59,061 nt of DNA from a virus (IMGVR_UViG_3300045284_000289:1-59061); one strand, 5' to 3'. Shown: positions 20,205 through 27,857, counted from the first letter of the stretch. Notes: generated from the letters alone by a model not told the origin. A program made the numbers and translations.

Positions 20205-21872
20205 TCAGAACGGCCAGCCGGCGTTCCTGCCCGCTTCCAACAGGGGGATCATCCGGAACGCCGCGTCCGTCAACCCACCGAACACGTGCGTGTTGTCCCG
20301 ACCACCGGACGGCGCGCTCCCCGCCCGGTACCCAGCCAAGTCCCAGATATAGAACGGCACGTCCCGAGACATCCCGCCGGGATGGAACTCACGGCCATAG
20401 CTGTCGTGAGCCTGCTCGTCGGTCACGATCACCACCCGGTCATGGCCGGCGTACCGCTCCCTGACCGCGCCCCAGGTGTTCGTGCCGCCCATGCCCCTGA
20501 ACTGTTGAATGATCGACAGCAGCGACTCGCCGCGCCGGACTTTCAGCGGCGCGCTGTGCGTGCCGTACTGCACCAGATCAGCCTGCTGGGCGCGGGCCGC
20601 CACCGCGGCACCGAACAGACCGGCCGCTTCGGCCCGGGACAGATCCGACTTGGCGGACAGGGATCCGAACATCGACCCGGACATGTCTACCAGGACCAGC
20701 GTCCGCCCCGGCAGCAGGGGAACGTTGCCCAGGGAGTGGTCGAGTCCCTGCTGCAACGCCCACGCCCACCGCAGGGACGGCGCGTTCTTGAACGCGGACA
20801 GGAACCGGAACGGGAACTGCCGCGACCGAGCGACCTCTTCGGGGTCGGCGAGTTTCGCCGCGACCTGCTCGGCGACCTTGTCGGACACACCGGCCTGGTC
20901 GAAGTTGCGGAGGTTCCGCAACAGCGCCATGTACCCCATGGTCGGGATGATCGCTTCCCACGCCACGGTGTCCATCGGCCCGTTGAGCCACCCGGCCAAC
21001 GCCTCCCACGTCATGCCGGCGTCACGCAAGTACTGCGACGCGTCCGGTCCCCACGAGCGGAGCATCGCCGCGCGTTCCCCCTGGGGGATGTCCATCAGGC
21101 GGGCGCGTTCCCGCAGGATCTTCAGGGTGTCGGGGATCGGGTTGTCCCGCCCGTGCCGCCGGTCGATCACGTGTTCGAACAGGTCACCCTGCGGCCGGCC
21201 GGTGTGGGGTGCGGCGTGCACCAGTTCCAGGACGTCACCGAACCGGAACGCATGCGCGCCGGTGTCGTACTTCAACACCGCCCGTTCGGTGTACAGGCGC
21301 CGGACCGCGTCCCCGATCCCGCGTTTGATCGGCTTGGGGACCGCGCGGCCGTAGCGGCGGGTCCAGTAGGCGAGCAGCTCGCCCGGCTCGTCGGCGCGCT
21401 GCAACACGGCGTCGATCACCGTGCGGGACAGGCCACGCCCCACCTGATGCTGTGGCGTCCCGTCGGGCGTGTGCTGCCCGGCGAGCGCGGTCACCGCGCG
21501 GGGCGCCTGCTGGGGGGCCTGGTCCAGGCCCAGTGTTTGGCGGGTCCGGACGAACTCGGCGGCACCAACCAGGGCGGCCGACCGCAGGTTGCCCTCACCG
21601 CGTAGCCAGGTGAGCATTCGGACGGTCCACTCCGGGTCTTCCACGGTCGCGGCCCGGACCAGCCGCTCGTACCGGTCGTCGCGGGCGTCGCTGGTCTCGT
21701 AGAACGTGCGCTCGCTGACCATGTTCGTGACGGCCAGGAGGAACAGTTCGGACTTGGTGTCCCGCAGGTACCCGGCACCGCCCTCGTGGGTGCGGATGGT
21801 GGGGGTGGGTTCGCTGGTGATCGGCGACGTGACAGCCGGTCGCGCGGCGCGGGGGGTGTTGAACTTCGACAA
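20205..21872 (-). CDS. rsr: Ro60-related TROVE + vWA ribonucleoprotein (Rsr)
   Basis: TROVE motifs THEGGAG, ELFLLAV, MTWEAL, MGYMALLRNLRN, SRQFPFRFLSA; vWA MIDAS LVDMSGSM..GGTN..VIVTDEQ. Likely TTG start at 21872 (MSKFNT) behind GAAGGG. Confidence 0.95.
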   Translation of the reverse strand: MSKFNTPRAARPAVTSPITSEPTPTIRTHEGGAGYLRDTKSELFLLAVTNMVSERTFYETSDARDDRYERLVRAATVEDPEWTVRMLTWLRGEGNLRSAALVGAAEFVRTRQTLGLDQAPQQAPRAVTALAGQHTPDGTPQHQVGRGLSRTVIDAVLQRADEPGELLAYWTRRYGRAVPKPIKRGIGDAVRRLYTERAVLKYDTGAHAFRFGDVLELVHAAPHTGRPQGDLFEHVIDRRHGRDNPIPDTLKILRERARLMDIPQGERAAMLRSWGPDASQYLRDAGMTWEALAGWLNGPMDTVAWEAIIPTMGYMALLRNLRNFDQAGVSDKVAEQVAAKLADPEEVARSRQFPFRFLSAFKNAPSLRWAWALQQGLDHSLGNVPLLPGRTLVLVDMSGSMFGSLSAKSDLSRAEAAGLFGAAVAARAQQADLVQYGTHSAPLKVRRGESLLSIIQQFRGMGGTNTWGAVRERYAGHDRVVIVTDEQAHDSYGREFHPGGMSRDVPFYIWDLAGYRAGSAPSGGRDNTHVFGGLTDAAFRMIPLLEAGRNAGWPF

Positions 21873-21917
21873 GGGGGCTCGACCCTTCAGGGGGAAGGGG
21901 AGCATGCGCACGTCAGG

Positions 21918-22060
21918 GATGGCGCCCGAGATCAGAGTCGGTGACGGTGACGAAGCGTGCTGCCGTTACACCACACTCGCCGAAGCGAGCGACGGGATTC
22001 GAACCCGCTCTACCCAATTAACAGTTGGAAGTAACCGTTGCCTACGCACCGAGCACCATC
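21918..22060 (-). ncRNA. yrlA: Y RNA 1 (YrlA-like tRNA mimic retaining an Asn GUU anticodon arm)
   Basis: Ro stem GAUGGUGCUCGGUGCG...UGAUCUCGGGCGCCAUC; T arm GCGGG-UUCGAAU-CCCGU; acceptor stem closed by UUCG; D arm UGGUGUAACGGCAGCAC. Confidence 0.9.
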
Positions 22061-22073
22061 GTCTGACGTGTGC

Positions 22074-22159
22074 TGCTCCCGAGATCAAGGTCACCGGCGG
22101 CATTTTCTGTCTACCTTGGAAGGGTGGGTGAAGTAGCCGCTGGTTTCGCACCGGGTGCA
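22074..22159 (-). ncRNA. Y RNA 2 (short; Ro-binding stem without a tRNA-like domain)
   Basis: Same CCGGUGCG..GGCUACUUC and UUGAUCUCGG motifs; only a small hairpin inside. Confidence 0.8.
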
Positions 22160-22213
22160 CGCCCTACGCTACACAGTCGGATAAGACCGCGCAAGCGGGA
22201 TGCCGCGTGGGGA

Positions 22214-22322
22214 GTGTCCGAGGTCAAGACGGTGAGGGAGTGCTCGCCTACCGAGCTGTGGTCCGCATCAGACGGACCCCAGGAATCGAACCCGAAGTAG
22301 CCCTTACCCGCGCACCGGACAC
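22214..22322 (-). ncRNA. yrlA: Y RNA 3 (compact YrlA-like)
   Basis: GUGUCCGGUGCG..GGCUACUUC; T loop GGGUUCGAUUCCU; GGUCCG/CGGACC closed acceptor; D-like AGCUCGGUAGGCGAGC; UUGACCUCGGACAC. Confidence 0.8.
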
Positions 22323-22364
22323 CCAACGCCACGCCTGCTCCCGCAACGCGGGAGTCAACTTGAT

Positions 22365-22511
22365 GCACCCGAGATCAAGATCAGCGACGGACTATCACAC
22401 CAATGCTCTACCAGGCTGAGCTACAGCCAGGGGTGCTACCCCTGGCGGGCGGGATTCGAACCCGCGACCCTTGGTTCCAGCTGAAGTAACCGTCACCCAC
22501 GCACCGAGTGC
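22365..22511 (-). ncRNA. yrlA: Y RNA 4 (canonical YrlA-like)
   Basis: GCACUCGGUGCG..GGUUACUUC; T arm GCGGG-UUCGAAU-CCCGC; acceptor GCCAGGGG/CCCCUGGC; D arm UAGCUCAGCCUGGUAGAGC; UUGAUCUCGGGUGC. Confidence 0.92.
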
Positions 22512-22517
22512 CCCCGC

Positions 22518-22553
22518 ACAATACACGCCTGATCGGAACCGACACACTAGAAT
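22518..22553. promoter_or_regulatory. Overlapping divergent promoters (Y RNA-rsr operon and padR-terminase operon)
   Basis: Minus TATTGT 22518-22523 puts +1 at 22511, the Y RNA 4 5' end; plus TAGAAT 22548-22553 puts +1 at ATG 22560. Confidence 0.65.
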
Positions 22554-22559
22554 TACGGC

Positions 22560-22871
22560 ATGTCCCTGGGTCGAGTACGGATCCCCACACTCCTCGTGCT
22601 CCACGTGCTACTCACCCAGCCCAGCGAGATCCACGGGTGGGCCGTGGTCACCGAAACCAGCCTGGCCGGCGGCACCGTCTACCCGATCCTGCAACGCCTG
22701 GAAAACATCGGGTGGGTCACCTCCCGGTGGGACCACACCCAGACCGGTCGGCCGCCGCGCCGCTACTACCGGGTCGTCGAAGCCCACCGGCGTGAAGCGG
22801 CCGGTCTGGTCGCCGCCCGCATGGCCGCCGTCCACACGGCGCCGCACAGAAAGGCGGCGCGCGATGCCTAA
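22560..22871 (+). CDS. PadR-family winged-helix regulator
   Basis: HGWAV...GTVYPILQRLENIGWVTSRW...RPPRRYYRV. Confidence 0.9.
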   Translation: MSLGRVRIPTLLVLHVLLTQPSEIHGWAVVTETSLAGGTVYPILQRLENIGWVTSRWDHTQTGRPPRRYYRVVEAHRREAAGLVAARMAAVHTAPHRKAARDA

Positions 22872-23469
22872 ACGCGTTCCGACCGACAGACCCAAGTGCA
22901 CCGGCCACACCCCGATCAAAGTCGACGGGATCAAACAGCGCGACGAACACGGGAAGGTCATCACCCGGCCCTGCGAACGGTGGCCCATCAACGGCGGCAC
23001 CGTGTGCCGCTCCCACGGCGGCGGGATCCGCCACGTCCGGGAAGCGGCCGACCGTCGCTACGCCGAGCAGCAGGTACGCGGCAAGCTGGCGAAGCTGATC
23101 GACACCGGCGCCATGATCGACGACCCGCTCACCGAGCTGTCCAAGCTCGCCACCGAAGCGGTGCTGTGGAAGGACATCATGGCCCAGCAGGTCGCCGGGT
23201 TGGCCGAGTACCGGTATGAGGACGTACGCGGCAGCGAGCAGTTGCGTTCGGAAATCGCGATGTTCGAGCGGGCCATGGACCGGTGTAACACCATCCTGGT
23301 CGGGATCGCGAAACTCAACATCGACGACCGGCTGATGGCGATTAAGGAATACCAGGTCGAACGCGTGTTGGGCGCGATCGACGCGGCGTTGACCCACGCC
23401 GGGGTCCCGGCCGAGCTGATCGCGCCGGCGAAGATACAGGCGGCACGGCACCTACACGCGACAGCCTGA
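22864..23469 (+). CDS. Probable terminase small subunit (HGG-motif type)
   Basis: C...VCRSHGG motif; immediately upstream of TerL. Confidence 0.6.
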   Translation: MPKRVPTDRPKCTGHTPIKVDGIKQRDEHGKVITRPCERWPINGGTVCRSHGGGIRHVREAADRRYAEQQVRGKLAKLIDTGAMIDDPLTELSKLATEAVLWKDIMAQQVAGLAEYRYEDVRGSEQLRSEIAMFERAMDRCNTILVGIAKLNIDDRLMAIKEYQVERVLGAIDAALTHAGVPAELIAPAKIQAARHLHATA

Positions 23470-23487: not shown

Positions 23488-24933
23488 GTGGACATGCTGC
23501 TGATGGTTGCCGACCGACTGAACCGGCCACCGGACGCGCCCGGCAACGACCCTAAGAAGGACAAGTATCCGTCACCCGGCGCGTTGGCTGCGGCGCTCGA
23601 CCCCCGCAACACGATCGAAACACCGGCGTTGGCGCTGCTGGACCGTGAGCTGGTCGACGTCGCGGACGGGGTCACCGACCGCCTGATGTGGTTCATGCCT
23701 CCCCAGGAGGGCAAAAGCCAGCGGGTGTCCCGTTGGTTCCCGCTGTGGATGCTGCACCGGAATCCCGAACTCAGGATCGCGATCGCGTCCTATGAGCTGG
23801 GCGCGGCACGCCGGTGGGGGCGGCAGATCCGTAACGAGATCCTGACCCATCCCGAGCTGGGGTTACGGGTCCGGCGCGATAGTTCAGCGGCGCACGAGTG
23901 GCAGCTGGAAGGCCATGAGGGGGGCGTGTACTGCGTTGGCGTGGGTGGCCCGCTGACCGGCCGCCCCGTGGACCTGATGATCATCGACGACCCGGTTAAG
24001 GGCCGTGCGGAAGCCGACAGCGAAACCTACCGGGAGACCGCGAAAGCCTGGTGGTCGGAGACCGTCAACGCACGCCTGGGTGAGAACACGCCCGTCGTGC
24101 TGATCATGACCCGGTGGCATGAGGACGACCTGGCCGGCTATCTCAAGACCGAGCACCCCGAGGAGTGGCGGGTCGTCAACATCCCCGCACTGGCCGACCA
24201 CGATCCCGCCAAGGGTGAGCGTGACCCGCTGGACCGTGAACCTGGCGAGTGGCTCACGTCCGCGCGGCGCCGCACGATCCGGGGATGGGAGAAGCGGCGC
24301 GCCAACTTCGGCCCGCGCGGGTTCCAGGCACTGTGCCAGGGACGGCCCGCGCCGGCGGAAGGTGCGATGTTCAAGCGGAGGTGGTGGCGGTACTACACCG
24401 CGCCCCAGTGGGTCGAGAAGGACGGGTCCCTGCGGGCGGAGTTCGACCAGATGATCCAGTCGTGGGACATGGCGTTCAAGGACACTAAGGCCACGGACTA
24501 TGTGGTGGGGCAGGTGTGGGGGCGGCGCGGCGCGAACGCCTACCTGCTCGACCAGATCCGTGACCGGTTGGACTTCCCGGCCACGTGCAAGGCCATGGCG
24601 GCGTTGACGGCACGCTGGCCCCAGGCGCACGCGAAGCTGGTGGAGGAGAAGGCGAACGGTGCCGCGGTGATCGCGCAGTTACGCAACACGATTCCCGGGC
24701 TGATCCCGATCACCCCGCACGAGTCGAAGGAGGCGCGGGCGGCGGCCGTGTCGCCGTTCGTGGAGTCGGGGAACGTGTACCTGCCGGATCCCGTGTTGTT
24801 GGGGTGGGTGGGCACGTTCCTGGCTGAGACGTCGTCCTTCCCGACGGGCACGCACGACGATCAGGTGGACGCCCTGTCGCAGGCCCTGGACCGGTTGTTG
24901 ATCACGTCGAAGCCGCGAGTGCGGTTCATGTGA
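23488..24933 (+). CDS. terL: Terminase large subunit
   Basis: Walker A MPPQEGKS, Walker B IIDDP, MTRWHEDDL, nuclease SWDMA...HDDQVDA. Confidence 0.95.
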   Translation: MDMLLMVADRLNRPPDAPGNDPKKDKYPSPGALAAALDPRNTIETPALALLDRELVDVADGVTDRLMWFMPPQEGKSQRVSRWFPLWMLHRNPELRIAIASYELGAARRWGRQIRNEILTHPELGLRVRRDSSAAHEWQLEGHEGGVYCVGVGGPLTGRPVDLMIIDDPVKGRAEADSETYRETAKAWWSETVNARLGENTPVVLIMTRWHEDDLAGYLKTEHPEEWRVVNIPALADHDPAKGERDPLDREPGEWLTSARRRTIRGWEKRRANFGPRGFQALCQGRPAPAEGAMFKRRWWRYYTAPQWVEKDGSLRAEFDQMIQSWDMAFKDTKATDYVVGQVWGRRGANAYLLDQIRDRLDFPATCKAMAALTARWPQAHAKLVEEKANGAAVIAQLRNTIPGLIPITPHESKEARAAAVSPFVESGNVYLPDPVLLGWVGTFLAETSSFPTGTHDDQVDALSQALDRLLITSKPRVRFM

Positions 24934-25290: not shown

Positions 25291-25476
25291 ATGCGGTCAC
25301 GACTAGCTCTCTTGGGTCGATGGTCCATTCGGGTGCGTACCGCTATTTTCACGCTCGGCGGATTCGGTGCGCTCACCGCCGCCGCGTGGACCTGGCTCGG
25401 TACATCAGCGGGCCTGGCAGCCACCGGCGCGTCGCTGCTGATCATCGAGGTCCTGGCCGGCGGTGACCGCCGATGA
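25291..25476 (+). CDS. Small membrane protein preceding the portal
   Basis: Two TM segments; ATGA overlap with the portal gene. Confidence 0.7.
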   Translation: MRSRLALLGRWSIRVRTAIFTLGGFGALTAAAWTWLGTSAGLAATGASLLIIEVLAGGDRR

Positions 25477-27857
25477 GGTCCCCCCTGGCCACCCTCGCCC
25501 GCGCCGTACGCAACCTCGGGCCGCCGCCGCTGACCGCGACCCGTGCTGGCGCCCGCACGGGACTGTTCGCCGCCCGCCGGGGTGAGGCACCGCTGGCCAT
25601 GATGGAGCTGGTCTCCACCGTGTTCGCCGTGGTGACCCGGCTGGCCAACTCCACCGCCCGGTCGGACTGGACGCTGTACCGCATGGCCGCGTCCGGCCTG
25701 GACGACGACCGTGTCCCGGTCGCGTCCCACGCCGTGATCGACCTGGTCACCACACCGAACCCGTTTCAGACGAGGTTCGAGGTGATGGAGGTGGGGCAGC
25801 AGCACCTTGAGCTGGCAGGCAAGGCGTGCATCGTGGTGGCCCGGTCCGGGCAGTACGGGCGCGGGACCCGCGCGGGTGACCTCCCTTTGGAGCTGTGGCC
25901 GGTGCGGCCGGACCGGATCTTCCCCATCCCGGACGTCAAAGAGTTCCAGGTCGGGTGGATGTACACCAGCCCGGACGGTGAGGAGATCAGGCTCGGCCTG
26001 GACGAGGTGCTGTGCATGCGCACCCCGGACCCGCGCGACCCCTATGGGTCGCTGTCGCCGGTGCAGTCGCTGATGACGGACCTGGAGTCGGCCCGCTACT
26101 CGGCGATGTGGAACCGGAACTTTTTTATCAACGGGGCCCAGCCGGGCGGGATCGTCACCGTCGAGCAGCGGCTGTCGGATGACGAGTACGACGAGATGAC
26201 CATGCGGTGGCGTGAGCAGCACCAGGGCGTGGCGAACGCTCACAGAGTCGCGATCCTGGAACGCGCCACCTACACGGAAACGAAGATCACCCAGCGTGAC
26301 ATGCAGTTCGTCGAACTGCGGAACGTGTCGCGGGAGATGATCCGCGAAGCGTGGCAGATGCCGAAGTTCGCTCTGGGCGATATCGACGACGTCAACCGGG
26401 CGACCGCCGAAGCGAGCGCGGACTGGTTCGGGCGGGAGCTGACCAGCCCCCGACTCGACCGGTGGAAAGAGCTCCTGAACACCCGGCTGCTGCCGATGTA
26501 CGGGCCCACCACTAGGGGCCTGGAGTTCGACTACGCGCCGGTCGTCAGCAAGGACCAGACGGCGGAGAACGACGATTTGGCCGCGCGGGTGGGGATCGCG
26601 CAGGGCCTCTACGACCTGGGTATGGAGTGGGCGGACGCGCTGAAGACGGCGGGTCTACCGCCGATGCCGCAACGCATCGAGGTCACCGAACCGGCCCCGG
26701 ACACATCGATCGACACCACGCCTGAGGATCCTCGGGACAGCGCTGACCGTGCGCTGGTCGAGGCGTTGCAGAAGATGTATCTAGCGGTCGGGCCGGTGAT
26801 CAACTCGCAGGAGGCGCGGGGGATCGCGAACCGGTTCGGCGCTGGCCTGGACCCCGCCCTGGATCCGTCCCCCGACCCCGCGCCGGCCGCGCCGGTGATC
26901 CCGGTGGGCGGGCAGCAGCCGCCCGAGGACCCTGCCGGTACCGAGGGCGGACCAACTGACTCGGGCGGGCCGCCGCCCGCACCACAGAACCTACCGAACT
27001 CCACCGATGCGCTGGCCCTGGCCCACAGGGTGACCGAGCTACTCGACCTGGCCCGCGGTCGCCCCCGTAACGCCGACGACCCCCCCGACGACCCGGCCGC
27101 CGCCGAGTCCGTGGACCTGCAACCCGTCCAAGACGACTGGGAAACCGCGCTGGACGCCTTGCTGGCGGTGTGGGCCGCGTCGGTGGTGGCCGAGTGGATC
27201 TCGGACCTGGCCGAGCAGATCGCGGACGTCCTGCGCTCCGGGGTGCTGACCGGGCTGGCCGACCTGCGGCTGGTCACCGACACCGCGGTCAACAGGGTGT
27301 TGAACGCGATGCACGACCTGGCCGAACGGGCCGCTCGGCGCGTGGTGGACGAGGCCGCCGCCCAGGACGTCGAGGTCAAGGCCGCCGCGCCCCCGAAAGA
27401 GGAGTTCCGCGACCGGGCCACGGTGACGGTGGACCTGCTGGCGGACGGCCTGAAGATCTCCGCCGCGCGGGAGGCGTCCCGGCGGGCCGGCCCGGACGCG
27501 GATCCGGACGCGGTCGCCGGGCAGGTCCGGGAGCACCTGGAGACCCTGACCGACGCTGAACCAGCCAAGCAGTTGGGGGCGGCGTTGACGGGGGCGCAGA
27601 ACACCGGCCGGGTGGAGACCCTGCGGAAGGCCCCGTCCGGCGCGATCTACGCCAGCGAGGTGCTCGACACGAACACCTGCGCGCCATGCCGGGCGATTCA
27701 CGGCCGGTGGATCTGCAACACCGACGACCTGGCGCCGCTGTACAAGCTCTATCCGGTGGGGGGCTATGTGGACTGTCTGGGGCGGGAGCGTTGTCGCGGC
27801 ACGTTTGTGGGTGTGTGGCGGCCCAAGACTGTGGGTGGGGACGGTGATGGTCAGTGA
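25473..27857 (+). CDS. HK97-type portal protein fused to a MuF-like head morphogenesis domain
   Basis: GSLSPV, RNFFINGAQPGGI, DMQFVE; Pro-rich linker; C-terminal DTNTCAPC...DCLGRERCRG. Confidence 0.9.
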   Translation: MRSPLATLARAVRNLGPPPLTATRAGARTGLFAARRGEAPLAMMELVSTVFAVVTRLANSTARSDWTLYRMAASGLDDDRVPVASHAVIDLVTTPNPFQTRFEVMEVGQQHLELAGKACIVVARSGQYGRGTRAGDLPLELWPVRPDRIFPIPDVKEFQVGWMYTSPDGEEIRLGLDEVLCMRTPDPRDPYGSLSPVQSLMTDLESARYSAMWNRNFFINGAQPGGIVTVEQRLSDDEYDEMTMRWREQHQGVANAHRVAILERATYTETKITQRDMQFVELRNVSREMIREAWQMPKFALGDIDDVNRATAEASADWFGRELTSPRLDRWKELLNTRLLPMYGPTTRGLEFDYAPVVSKDQTAENDDLAARVGIAQGLYDLGMEWADALKTAGLPPMPQRIEVTEPAPDTSIDTTPEDPRDSADRALVEALQKMYLAVGPVINSQEARGIANRFGAGLDPALDPSPDPAPAAPVIPVGGQQPPEDPAGTEGGPTDSGGPPPAPQNLPNSTDALALAHRVTELLDLARGRPRNADDPPDDPAAAESVDLQPVQDDWETALDALLAVWAASVVAEWISDLAEQIADVLRSGVLTGLADLRLVTDTAVNRVLNAMHDLAERAARRVVDEAAAQDVEVKAAAPPKEEFRDRATVTVDLLADGLKISAAREASRRAGPDADPDAVAGQVREHLETLTDAEPAKQLGAALTGAQNTGRVETLRKAPSGAIYASEVLDTNTCAPCRAIHGRWICNTDDLAPLYKLYPVGGYVDCLGRERCRGTFVGVWRPKTVGGDGDGQ

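Follow-up and report, generated by a model that had tools for sequence, protein, structure and literature searches.

The virus sequence IMGVR_UViG_3300045284_000289:1-59061, a complete record of 59,061 nucleotides (nt) to which we refer as the window, carries on its minus strand a Y RNA module, Y1 (21921..22057), that adjoins the gene for the TROVE-family protein Ro60 and ends, at 21921, about 50 nt upstream of it. Y1 is composed of a Ro-type terminal stem, a second helix (P2) and a complete, circularly permuted tRNA-like core, and is matched over 21924-22055 (101.6 bits, E 7e-18) by R1, a covariance model built from 53 modules (alignment A1). We think it probable that Y1 belongs to the YrlA class of Y RNAs associated with Ro60, and within that class to a 'closed' subclass, that is, a look-alike of a whole tRNA in which a hairpin resembling an anticodon arm is maintained by selection. 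The anatomy of Y1, as well as the conservation, covariation and loop statistics of the closed hairpin, come directly from the computations presented below.

Y1 contains the four arms of a tRNA in permuted order

Read 5′ to 3′ on the minus strand, Y1 opens with the 5′ strand of its terminal stem, P1 (22057-22049, part of 22041..22057), which overlaps a conserved 5′ sequence, GGUGCGUAGG (22050-22041), that is a likely Ro60 contact. GGUGCG is conserved, and by eye the 5′ motif of Y1 resembles the sequences GGUCCGA and GNCGAAN0-1G quoted in Chen et al. 2014. The 5′ strand of P2 (ACGGU, 22034..22038) is followed by a conserved UAC (22033-22031), which corresponds to the YUAY motif of Chen et al. 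2014, and by a U, the whole UAC-U occupying 22033-22030. There then comes a hairpin that looks like an anticodon arm, UCCAA-CUGUUAA-UUGGG (22013..22029), with a stem of 5 base pairs (bp), one of them U-G, and a 7-nt loop in which C32 is at 22024, U33 at 22023, the triplet GUU at 22022-22020, A37 at 22019 and A38 at 22018. The remaining parts of a tRNA follow, beginning with a 4-nt variable loop, UAGA (22009..22012), and a T arm, GCGGG-UUCGAAU-CCCGU (21992..22008), which is recovered in both the Rfam tRNA and the Rfam YrlA alignments. Next to the T arm stands an acceptor-like hairpin, CGCUCGC-UUCG-GCGAGUG (21974..21991), whose 7-bp stem is sealed by UUCG (21984-21981) and has neither a free end nor a CCA, and whose 3′ strand is followed, at the discriminator position, by U. 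The UG at 21973-21972 provides U8 and G9, and the D arm, GUGU-AACGGCA-GCAC (21971-21957), leads into G26 (21956). A linker, CUUCGUC (21949..21955), separates G26 from P2 at the site where typical YrlA RNAs have the 5′ strand of their anticodon-like stem; judged by eye, it could pair with UUGGG at only four of five positions, three of these being G-U. The 3′ strands of P2 (ACCGU, 21944..21948) and of P1 (CUCGGGCGCC, 21921..21930) complete the module.

The preliminary description of this locus had reported the hairpin with GUU at 22022-22020, a short variable region after it, and all four tRNA arms in circularly permuted order around an acceptor stem sealed by UUCG and lacking CCA. The hairpin lies at exactly these coordinates on the minus strand, the variable region is the 4-nt UAGA, and all four arms are present; moreover, the 5-bp stem, the 7-nt loop, U33 and a purine at position 37 give the hairpin the size and the loop signature of an anticodon arm. 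Two general models, used with relaxed thresholds, each align with a part of this arrangement. The Rfam tRNA model aligns its positions 5-66 to 22047-21989, taking in the hairpin, the variable loop and the T arm (25.0 bits, E 0.017, below the cut-off of 29 bits), and the Rfam YrlA model (RF02553) aligns its positions 31-81 to the T arm, the acceptor stem and the D arm.

The closed hairpin recurs in related arrays and covaries

A search with the Ro60 protein identified 15 loci in viruses, at 42-57% identity, and 52 in genomes, most of them Streptomyces, with the best match among cultured phages at 46%. Searching with R1 yielded 154 matches at E ≤0.001 in 68 sources, 150 of which were aligned as A2, an alignment fitted to the R1 model. 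We called a module closed if it has a hairpin with a fully paired 5-bp stem and a 7-nt loop that starts no more than 5 nt from P2 and ends 4-5 nt before the T arm, and open if the equivalent 3′ strand instead pairs with the five bases after position 26, as it does in typical YrlA RNAs and in the fourth module of the window, Y4. By these definitions 55 of the 150 modules in A2 are closed, 34 are open and 61 are of other kinds, and at least one closed module is present in 51 of the 63 sources that hold modules (8/13 viral loci, 42/49 genome loci, and the window). The variable loop that follows the hairpin in the relatives is 4-5 nt long and mostly NGGUC. When no rows are preselected, 30 of the 91 distinct regions lying upstream of a T arm show 5/5 pairs in the fixed geometry; over 200 shuffles the mean was 2.0 and the highest count 8.

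The 3′ strand of the closed hairpin aligns with the strand that in open modules pairs to the bases just after the D arm. Y4 (22367..22510, minus strand; R1 68.7 bits; Rfam YrlA 38.9 bits at 22401-22473) is a typical open YrlA: its anticodon-like stem, ACCAA/UUGGU, is formed between distant strands that flank the tRNA-like core and open towards the Ro stem, and a 7-nt stretch is left at the loop site. The earlier statement that in Y4, as in typical YrlA, the Ro-binding stem replaces the anticodon loop is therefore roughly right, in that there is no closed loop and the stem opens to the Ro stem, yet Y4 does keep a 7-nt stretch. There are also modules in which both pairings are available (L062:1195-1329, L068:1008-1142 and L010:1123-1256; related loci carry L numbers), where the strand before the variable loop can pair either locally (4/5) or after the D arm (5/5). 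These modules may be alternative conformers or evolutionary intermediates.

Taken over all of A2, with the reservation that it is fitted to the model, every helix of the module is supported: paired cells make up 94.6%, and of 34 pairs 28 vary in both partners. The pairing of P1 is 97.7% across 147 distinct rows (3/5 pairs changing on both sides), P2 is 92% paired (5/5), the acceptor stem is 98.8% paired (7/7) and the helix of the T arm is 99.8% paired. In the set of 23 distinct closed hairpins, changes to both partners of the three inner pairs amount to 27 cells, and the hairpin has a covariation score of 0.887, against 0.30 for shuffled and at most 0.20 for slid partners, all in rows preselected for pairing; because the rows were chosen in this way, the 100% pairing of these 23 hairpins holds by construction. 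When RNAalifold was applied to the 53 distinct closed rows of the model-leaning alignment, the hairpin was predicted together with P1, P2, the T arm, the acceptor stem and the D arm.

The loop frame is kept while the triplet drifts

The closed loops have the composition of anticodon loops. Comparing the 23 distinct closed loops with 39 loops of genuine tRNAs from the same loci, and bearing in mind that these are counts of related sequences and not of independent events, we find a pyrimidine at position 32 in 21/23 and 37/39, U33 in 22/23 and 37/39, a purine at position 37 in 20/23 and 37/39, and A38 in 23/23 and 31/39, respectively. Positions 36 and 37 are coupled as they are in genuine tRNAs, with U36 followed by A37 in 11/11 closed loops and G36 followed by G37 in 5/5. 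Open modules carry at the same site a heptamer that is mostly N-U-N-G-G-G-A.

The triplet itself is variable. Between them the 55 closed modules show 16 different loops (a tally made up of 52 modules together with those of the window, L007 and L067): CUGAUAA occurs 15 times, CUCAUAA 14 times, CUGUUAA, the loop of Y1, 7 times with the window included, CUGCUAA 3 times, CUCAACA, CUCAAUA and CUCUCAA twice each, and nine others once each; the triplets include GAU, CAU, GUU, GCU, CCU and CUU. In 30 Streptomyces loci C32, U33, U36, A37 and A38 are invariant, whereas position 34 is occupied by G (17 loci) or C (13), and position 35 by A (25), U (3) or C (2). On a Ro gene tree of 32 Streptomyces loci (the same 30 plus L019 and L020; median Ro gene identity 88%) the triplet changes at least 13 times, with nine changes at position 34, five at position 35 and none at position 36. 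Third codon positions on this tree change 3.18 times on average (95th percentile, 9), and 6.6% of them change nine times or more; we accordingly rejected diversifying selection at positions 34-35, for which nine and five changes fall within the spread of third codon positions. In the Ro protein tree the window forms a long branch within a nine-member clade, whose closed modules have the triplets GUU (the window, L051 and L065), GCU, GUG and GUC, and sister loci differ from one another, as with L004 (GCU) and L051 (GUU), and with GAU and CAU elsewhere. The survey of homologues proposed in the preliminary description, asking whether they keep or vary the anticodon, has a divided answer: in many relatives the hairpin and the frame of its loop are kept, and the triplet is not.

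We also observed that one type of D arm, GUGUAAYGGCAGCAC, present in the window (21957-21973, minus strand) and in L010:1456-1592, L013:1893-2019 and L074:1645-1774, goes with the triplets GUU, UGG, GAU and CUG. As the same D arm is found with different triplets, body and triplet do not co-evolve.

Results that weigh against a whole-tRNA look-alike

A number of results count against the interpretation of Y1 as a YrlA-class look-alike of a whole tRNA. Scanned at the Rfam gathering scores (29 bits for tRNA and 69 bits for YrlA), the window has no match, and ARAGORN finds 0 tRNA genes in it. The YrlA model gives Y1 only 16.3 bits; other closed modules score 32-39 bits, over model positions 24-84 only. 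The Levitt pair of Y1 would be A15-A48, which is non-canonical. In folding driven by energy only, the minimum is -52.6 kcal/mol compared with -39.6 kcal/mol for the tRNA-like target, the hairpin alone contributing -1.9 kcal/mol, so that the minimum-energy structure obtained from the single sequence differs from a cloverleaf. The 156-nt Y1 region has a folding z-score of -1.43, and within the ensemble of folds the pairs of the Y1 hairpin have probabilities of 0.29-0.63. When the 91 distinct regions that precede the T arm are folded to minimum energy without bias, only 15 form a 7-nt loop, and 24 form a 4-nt loop. RNAalifold run on the plain MAFFT alignment A1, which has register shifts of 1 nt in the hairpin region, finds P1, P2, the T arm, the acceptor stem and the D arm and leaves the hairpin unpaired. 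The rate of change at position 34, lying within the range of third codon positions, speaks for freedom to vary and not for positive selection.

ARAGORN was also applied to modules that a script had re-ordered into the linear order of a tRNA. It called a tRNA in 53/55 closed and 33/33 open modules and named Y1 tRNA-Asn(gtt), compared with 9/88 in native order. It still called 42/55 re-ordered closed modules after the hairpin had been shuffled, which makes this a weak test, and for this reason we rejected re-ordering followed by ARAGORN as a test of the anticodon arm.

Alternative explanations of the hairpin

Chen et al. 2014 described a stem-loop of this sort and named it the variable arm ('V'), and the hairpin could accordingly be a long variable arm, with P2 and the YUAY kink as the equivalent of the anticodon stem in a class II-like fold and the likeness of the loop to an anticodon loop incidental. 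The order of the strands fits, since the hairpin sits between the 5′ strand of P2 and the T arm; a conserved UA lies inside the anticodon stem in the Salmonella crystal structure (Wang 2018); and by our reading such hairpins are present in 4/7 of the seed sequences of Chen et al. 2014, for example CCA-CUUCUAA-UGG in M. smegmatis. Nevertheless, a full variable loop of 4-5 nt comes after the hairpin, while by eye the class II-like modules of the same arrays (described below) have 2 nt at this place. In class II tRNAs the variable arm is followed by about one base. In addition, G26 and the 3′ strand of P2 are 7 nt apart (CUUCGUC) in Y1, the 5-bp stem, 7-nt loop, tRNA-like loop make-up and coupling of positions 36 and 37 are those of an anticodon arm, and in L062, L068:1008 and L010:1123 one and the same 3′ strand can pair locally or after the D arm. 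We favor the anticodon arm because of the normal variable loop, the shared 3′ strand, the existence of separate class II-like hairpins, and the arm sizes and loop make-up, and we regard a variable arm as unlikely; still, sequence alone cannot settle whether the hairpin or P2 stacks on the D stem, and this too must be set against our interpretation. A further possibility is that the hairpin is a relic, without a role today, of the first tRNA in a dimeric tRNA ancestor. Such an origin would agree with the dimeric-tRNA model cited in Wang 2018, with the 5′ half of Y1, which in its native order aligns as a degenerate tRNA (positions 5-66 of the tRNA model, 25 bits), and with the tRNA labels that ARAGORN as well as the annotators of GenBank records give to the 5′ halves of related Y RNAs. 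Even decay would be expected of a leftover that serves no function, and so this explanation is counted against by the uneven constraint on the loop, five positions of which are invariant across the 30 Streptomyces loci (88% median Ro identity) while positions 34 and 35 changed nine and five times; compensatory changes also maintain the pairing of the stem. We therefore hold a functionless leftover to be distinctly improbable.

Two other explanations take the letters GUU at face value, and both seem to us very improbable. Y1 might be the precursor of a working, chargeable tRNA-Asn, whether RNase P opens the acceptor loop and CCA is added to give a two-piece tRNA or whether the RNA is processed like the permuted tRNAs of algae and archaea. 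In favor of a precursor, Y1 has a 7-bp acceptor stem with a 4-nt loop much as M. smegmatis YrlA does (loop ACGC), and in vivo the latter is cut by RNase P and acquires CCA (Chen et al. 2014); processing of this type was raised as a possibility in Wang 2018; and re-ordered Y1 is called tRNA-Asn(gtt). Yet the Ro stem would still be joined to Y1 at the 26/27 junction, its Levitt pair is A-A, its discriminator base is U where the four genuine tRNA-Asn genes of related loci have G (4/4), the triplet drifts among close relatives in a way that a decoding tRNA could not tolerate, and no bacterial splicing endonuclease is known (Wang 2018). Nor is the body of Y1 that of a tRNA-Asn: re-ordered, it is 0.55-0.64 identical to the genuine tRNA-Asn sequences and 0.67-0.68 identical to Ala and Asp tRNAs, and we rejected an Asn-specific origin since it is no closer to the former than to the latter. 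(ARAGORN makes five Asn calls in the related loci, four of them the genuine tRNA-Asn genes and the fifth the 5′ half of a Y RNA.) Alternatively, Y1 might be a decoy specific for proteins that read GUN or Asn anticodons, either TGT, which inserts queuosine, or nucleases with such a specificity. CUGUUAA does have U33-G34-U35 and is identical to the loops of three of the four genuine tRNA-Asn, and GUU recurs within the Ro clade of the window (the window, L051, L065 and, in open form, L003). Against this stand the 16 loops found among 55 closed modules, with sisters differing as GCU and GUU or as GAU and CAU, and the absence of the TGT family from 5/5 complete Streptomyces genomes that have related loci and from the phage, the family being present in 14/14 control genomes. 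TsaD is present in the 5/5 Streptomyces genomes checked, which shows only that modification of the t6A37 type is possible. As the triplet is not conserved, a role specific for Asn or TGT is unlikely for Y1, and as TGT is absent from these five genomes and from the phage, a role related to queuosine is unlikely in hosts of this kind. Thus, of what the preliminary description had proposed, the specific tRNA-Asn identity is not supported, with a variable triplet, a body that is not Asn-like and U instead of G at the discriminator position, and the idea of a decoy for TGT is weak.

The Y RNA array and its surroundings

The window holds four Y RNA modules, all on the minus strand between 22510 and 21921 and all matched by the single model R1. 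Besides Y1 and Y4 these are Y2 (22077..22157, 44.3 bits), which resembles YrlB in having a Ro-type stem and P2 without a tRNA-like core, and Y3 (22216..22321, 47.5 bits), which has a T arm, a closed acceptor stem and a D arm, with the anticodon position empty and UAC-U running into the T arm. One phage thereby displays four different grades of tRNA mimicry. The Ro60 (TROVE) gene lies at 20205..21911 on the minus strand (Pfam TROVE, E 2.9e-17) if the longest open reading frame, from GTG 21911, is taken; its start is probably TTG 21872, residue 14 of this frame, since homologues in many loci align from residue 14, and this TTG is preceded by GAAGGG. Divergent from the Y RNA and Ro cassette is a gene for a PadR-family regulator (22560..22871, plus strand; Pfam PadR, E 1.9e-11), downstream of which, also on the plus strand, are the genes for the large subunit of terminase (23488-24933) and the portal protein (25473-27857). 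Scans of 21700-22900 for consensus promoters and terminators found none, and blastn of the Y RNA array against 50,697 phage records gave no match. The sequencing runs listed with this sequence comprise two DNA entries, of which one may be the source sample, and none of RNA; a soil metagenome run contains the window.

Related arrays contain further kinds of module. In about 20 Streptomyces loci a third kind is found next to Ro (for example L034:1309-1456, L031:1313-1461 and L021:1308-1456), with the D arm UGGCGGAACGGAAGACGC, a long-range anticodon-like stem, CUGGU/GCCAG, and a separate 5-bp hairpin located 2 nt before the T arm; judging from its sequence, such a module resembles a class II tRNA whose long variable arm is genuine. 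Many Streptomyces arrays also have, between two tRNA-like modules, a conserved mini Y RNA of about 68 nt with the central sequence UUCUCUUUCAAAGAAUC and without a T or D arm (for example L036:1218-1286, L032:1217-1285 and L058:1232-1299). In cultured phages, annotated tRNA features overlap modules matched by R1: tRNA-Arg(tct) of VanLee (L070:1740-1811) lies in a 114-bit match at 1740-1874 (65454-65588 of the record), tRNA-Arg(cct) of GiJojo (1775-1849) overlaps the module L069:1771-1914, and tRNA-Pro(tgg) of Frankenweenie (1769-1859, 91 nt) overlaps L073:1786-1940. These three GenBank features look like 5′ halves of Y RNAs mislabeled as tRNA genes.

Relation to known RNAs

The closest relatives of Y1 are the YrlA RNAs (RF02553), typified by Salmonella Typhimurium YrlA, the tRNA-like domain of which is available as PDB 6cu1 (as cited in Wang 2018). 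Both are adjacent to Ro60 and have a Ro-binding end stem, and in both the T arm precedes the D arm, with a closed acceptor-like stem between them and with conserved T and D loop sequences. The published YrlA 'lacks the anticodon loop', its anticodon stem being formed by distant strands and leading into the Ro module (Wang 2018), whereas a local 5-bp hairpin with a 7-nt loop of the tRNA type is the defining feature of the variant to which Y1 belongs. Binding by Ro60 and modification by TruB and DusA are further characteristics of the YrlA class. Held against what characterizes a YrlA in sequence, Y1 has the Ro60 adjacency, the Ro-type end stem and the order of T arm, acceptor stem and D arm, and does not have a score of 69 bits or an anticodon stem made from distant strands; held against what characterizes a tRNA gene, it has an anticodon arm and lacks a linear cloverleaf with free ends and a score of 29 bits; and of the marks of a tRNA-Asn (a GUU conserved among orthologues, an Asn-type body and the Asn discriminator base) it has none. 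M. smegmatis YrlA (Chen et al. 2014) is actinobacterial and, like Y1, has a 7-bp acceptor stem with a 4-nt loop; its heptamer CUUCUAA stands upstream of the T arm. By our reading of the seed alignment, however, its local stem is only 3-4 bp long, and UUCC, located after the D arm, is an alternative partner for the same strand.

Permuted tRNA genes of red algae and of an archaeon resemble Y1 in having a closed acceptor stem and in encoding the 3′ half first; their circular intermediates give rise to decoding tRNAs by means of a splicing endonuclease that is not known in bacteria (Wang 2018). In Y1, by contrast, the break is at 26/27 and not in a loop, and a stem for binding Ro60 is attached there. 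Genuine phage tRNA-Asn(GUU) genes (L011:158-232, L014:1930-2002 and L069:1224-1297) share with Y1 the identical CUGUUAA loop and a canonical T loop, but are linear, with free ends and a discriminator G, and have the body identity of 0.55-0.64 given above. Transfer-messenger RNA (tmRNA) and viral tRNA-like structures such as that of turnip yellow mosaic virus are, like Y1, not tRNAs and copy the tRNA L-shape to engage tRNA enzymes (Wang 2018); these have free CCA ends and are aminoacylated, whereas the acceptor stem of Y1 is sealed and the RNA would be tied to Ro60.

Proposed function and significance

YrlA has a tRNA-like fold, contains pseudouridine as well as dihydrouridine, and is co-purified with Ro60 and with PNPase (Chen et al. 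2014; Wang 2018), and by analogy with this published work we infer that Y1 would bind Ro60, adopt a tRNA-like three-dimensional fold and be recognized by tRNA enzymes. Its ends would pair as a Ro60-binding stem, comprising P1 and the GGUGCG motif, and continue into P2. The permuted body (anticodon-arm hairpin, variable loop, T arm, 7-bp acceptor stem with its sealing tetraloop, and D arm) would then meet the Ro stem at 26/27, with the hairpin taking the place of the proximal anticodon stem of an ordinary YrlA and its 7-nt loop retaining a pyrimidine at position 32, U33, a purine at position 37 and A38. A look-alike of a whole tRNA tethered to Ro60 in this manner could engage host proteins or compete for them. 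Because the three 'anticodon' letters are largely free, the GUU of Y1 does not define the function, and a loop frame that is fixed while positions 34-35 are free points to partners that read the generic frame of an anticodon loop. The targets would thus be proteins that read the tRNA elbow together with this frame, such as enzymes that modify position 37 or nucleases that cut the anticodon loop. U36-A37 is a determinant of t6A37, and G36-G37 is a determinant of m1G37. A generic role as a whole-tRNA mimic or decoy is plausible, and so is a role for Y1 as a decoy or competitor for anticodon nucleases; for Salmonella YrlA, Hughes et al. 2020 (PMC7790460) proposed that it competitively inhibits an anticodon nuclease.

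A bolder proposal, to which we give little credence, is that Actinobacteria and their phages make a family of full tRNA replicas tethered to Ro60, with all four arms, a 7-bp acceptor stem and the natural loop signatures U36-A37-A38 or G36-G37, that are opened by RNase P and tailed with CCA, like M. smegmatis YrlA, into two-piece tRNAs with a real anticodon arm, serving as bait or sensors for nucleases or even becoming aminoacylated. Damage by anticodon nucleases would in that event be coupled to Ro60 and to the nucleases of Ro60, and the freedom of positions 34-35 would let lineages retune which tRNA is imitated.

Relative to the literature that we found, reading the YrlA hairpin as an anticodon arm is new, with the proviso that the supplementary drawings of V that belong to Chen et al. 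2014 may already show the hairpin. In the published view YrlA is without an anticodon loop and its partners bind the tRNA elbow; here a large subclass, which includes modules of cultured phages such as Gordonia phage VanLee, has what is probably a replica of the anticodon arm, in which five of seven loop positions are fixed and two are free. This would explain why tRNA finders and GenBank phage records put tRNA labels on the 5′ halves of Y RNAs, and the closed modules would lend concrete sequence support to the dimeric-tRNA model of the origin of these RNAs. It also widens the range of candidate partners to those that read the anticodon loop, among them the enzymes for t6A37 or m1G37 and the anticodon nucleases, and thereby makes the idea that Ro60-associated Y RNAs may act as decoys or competitors for such nucleases directly testable.

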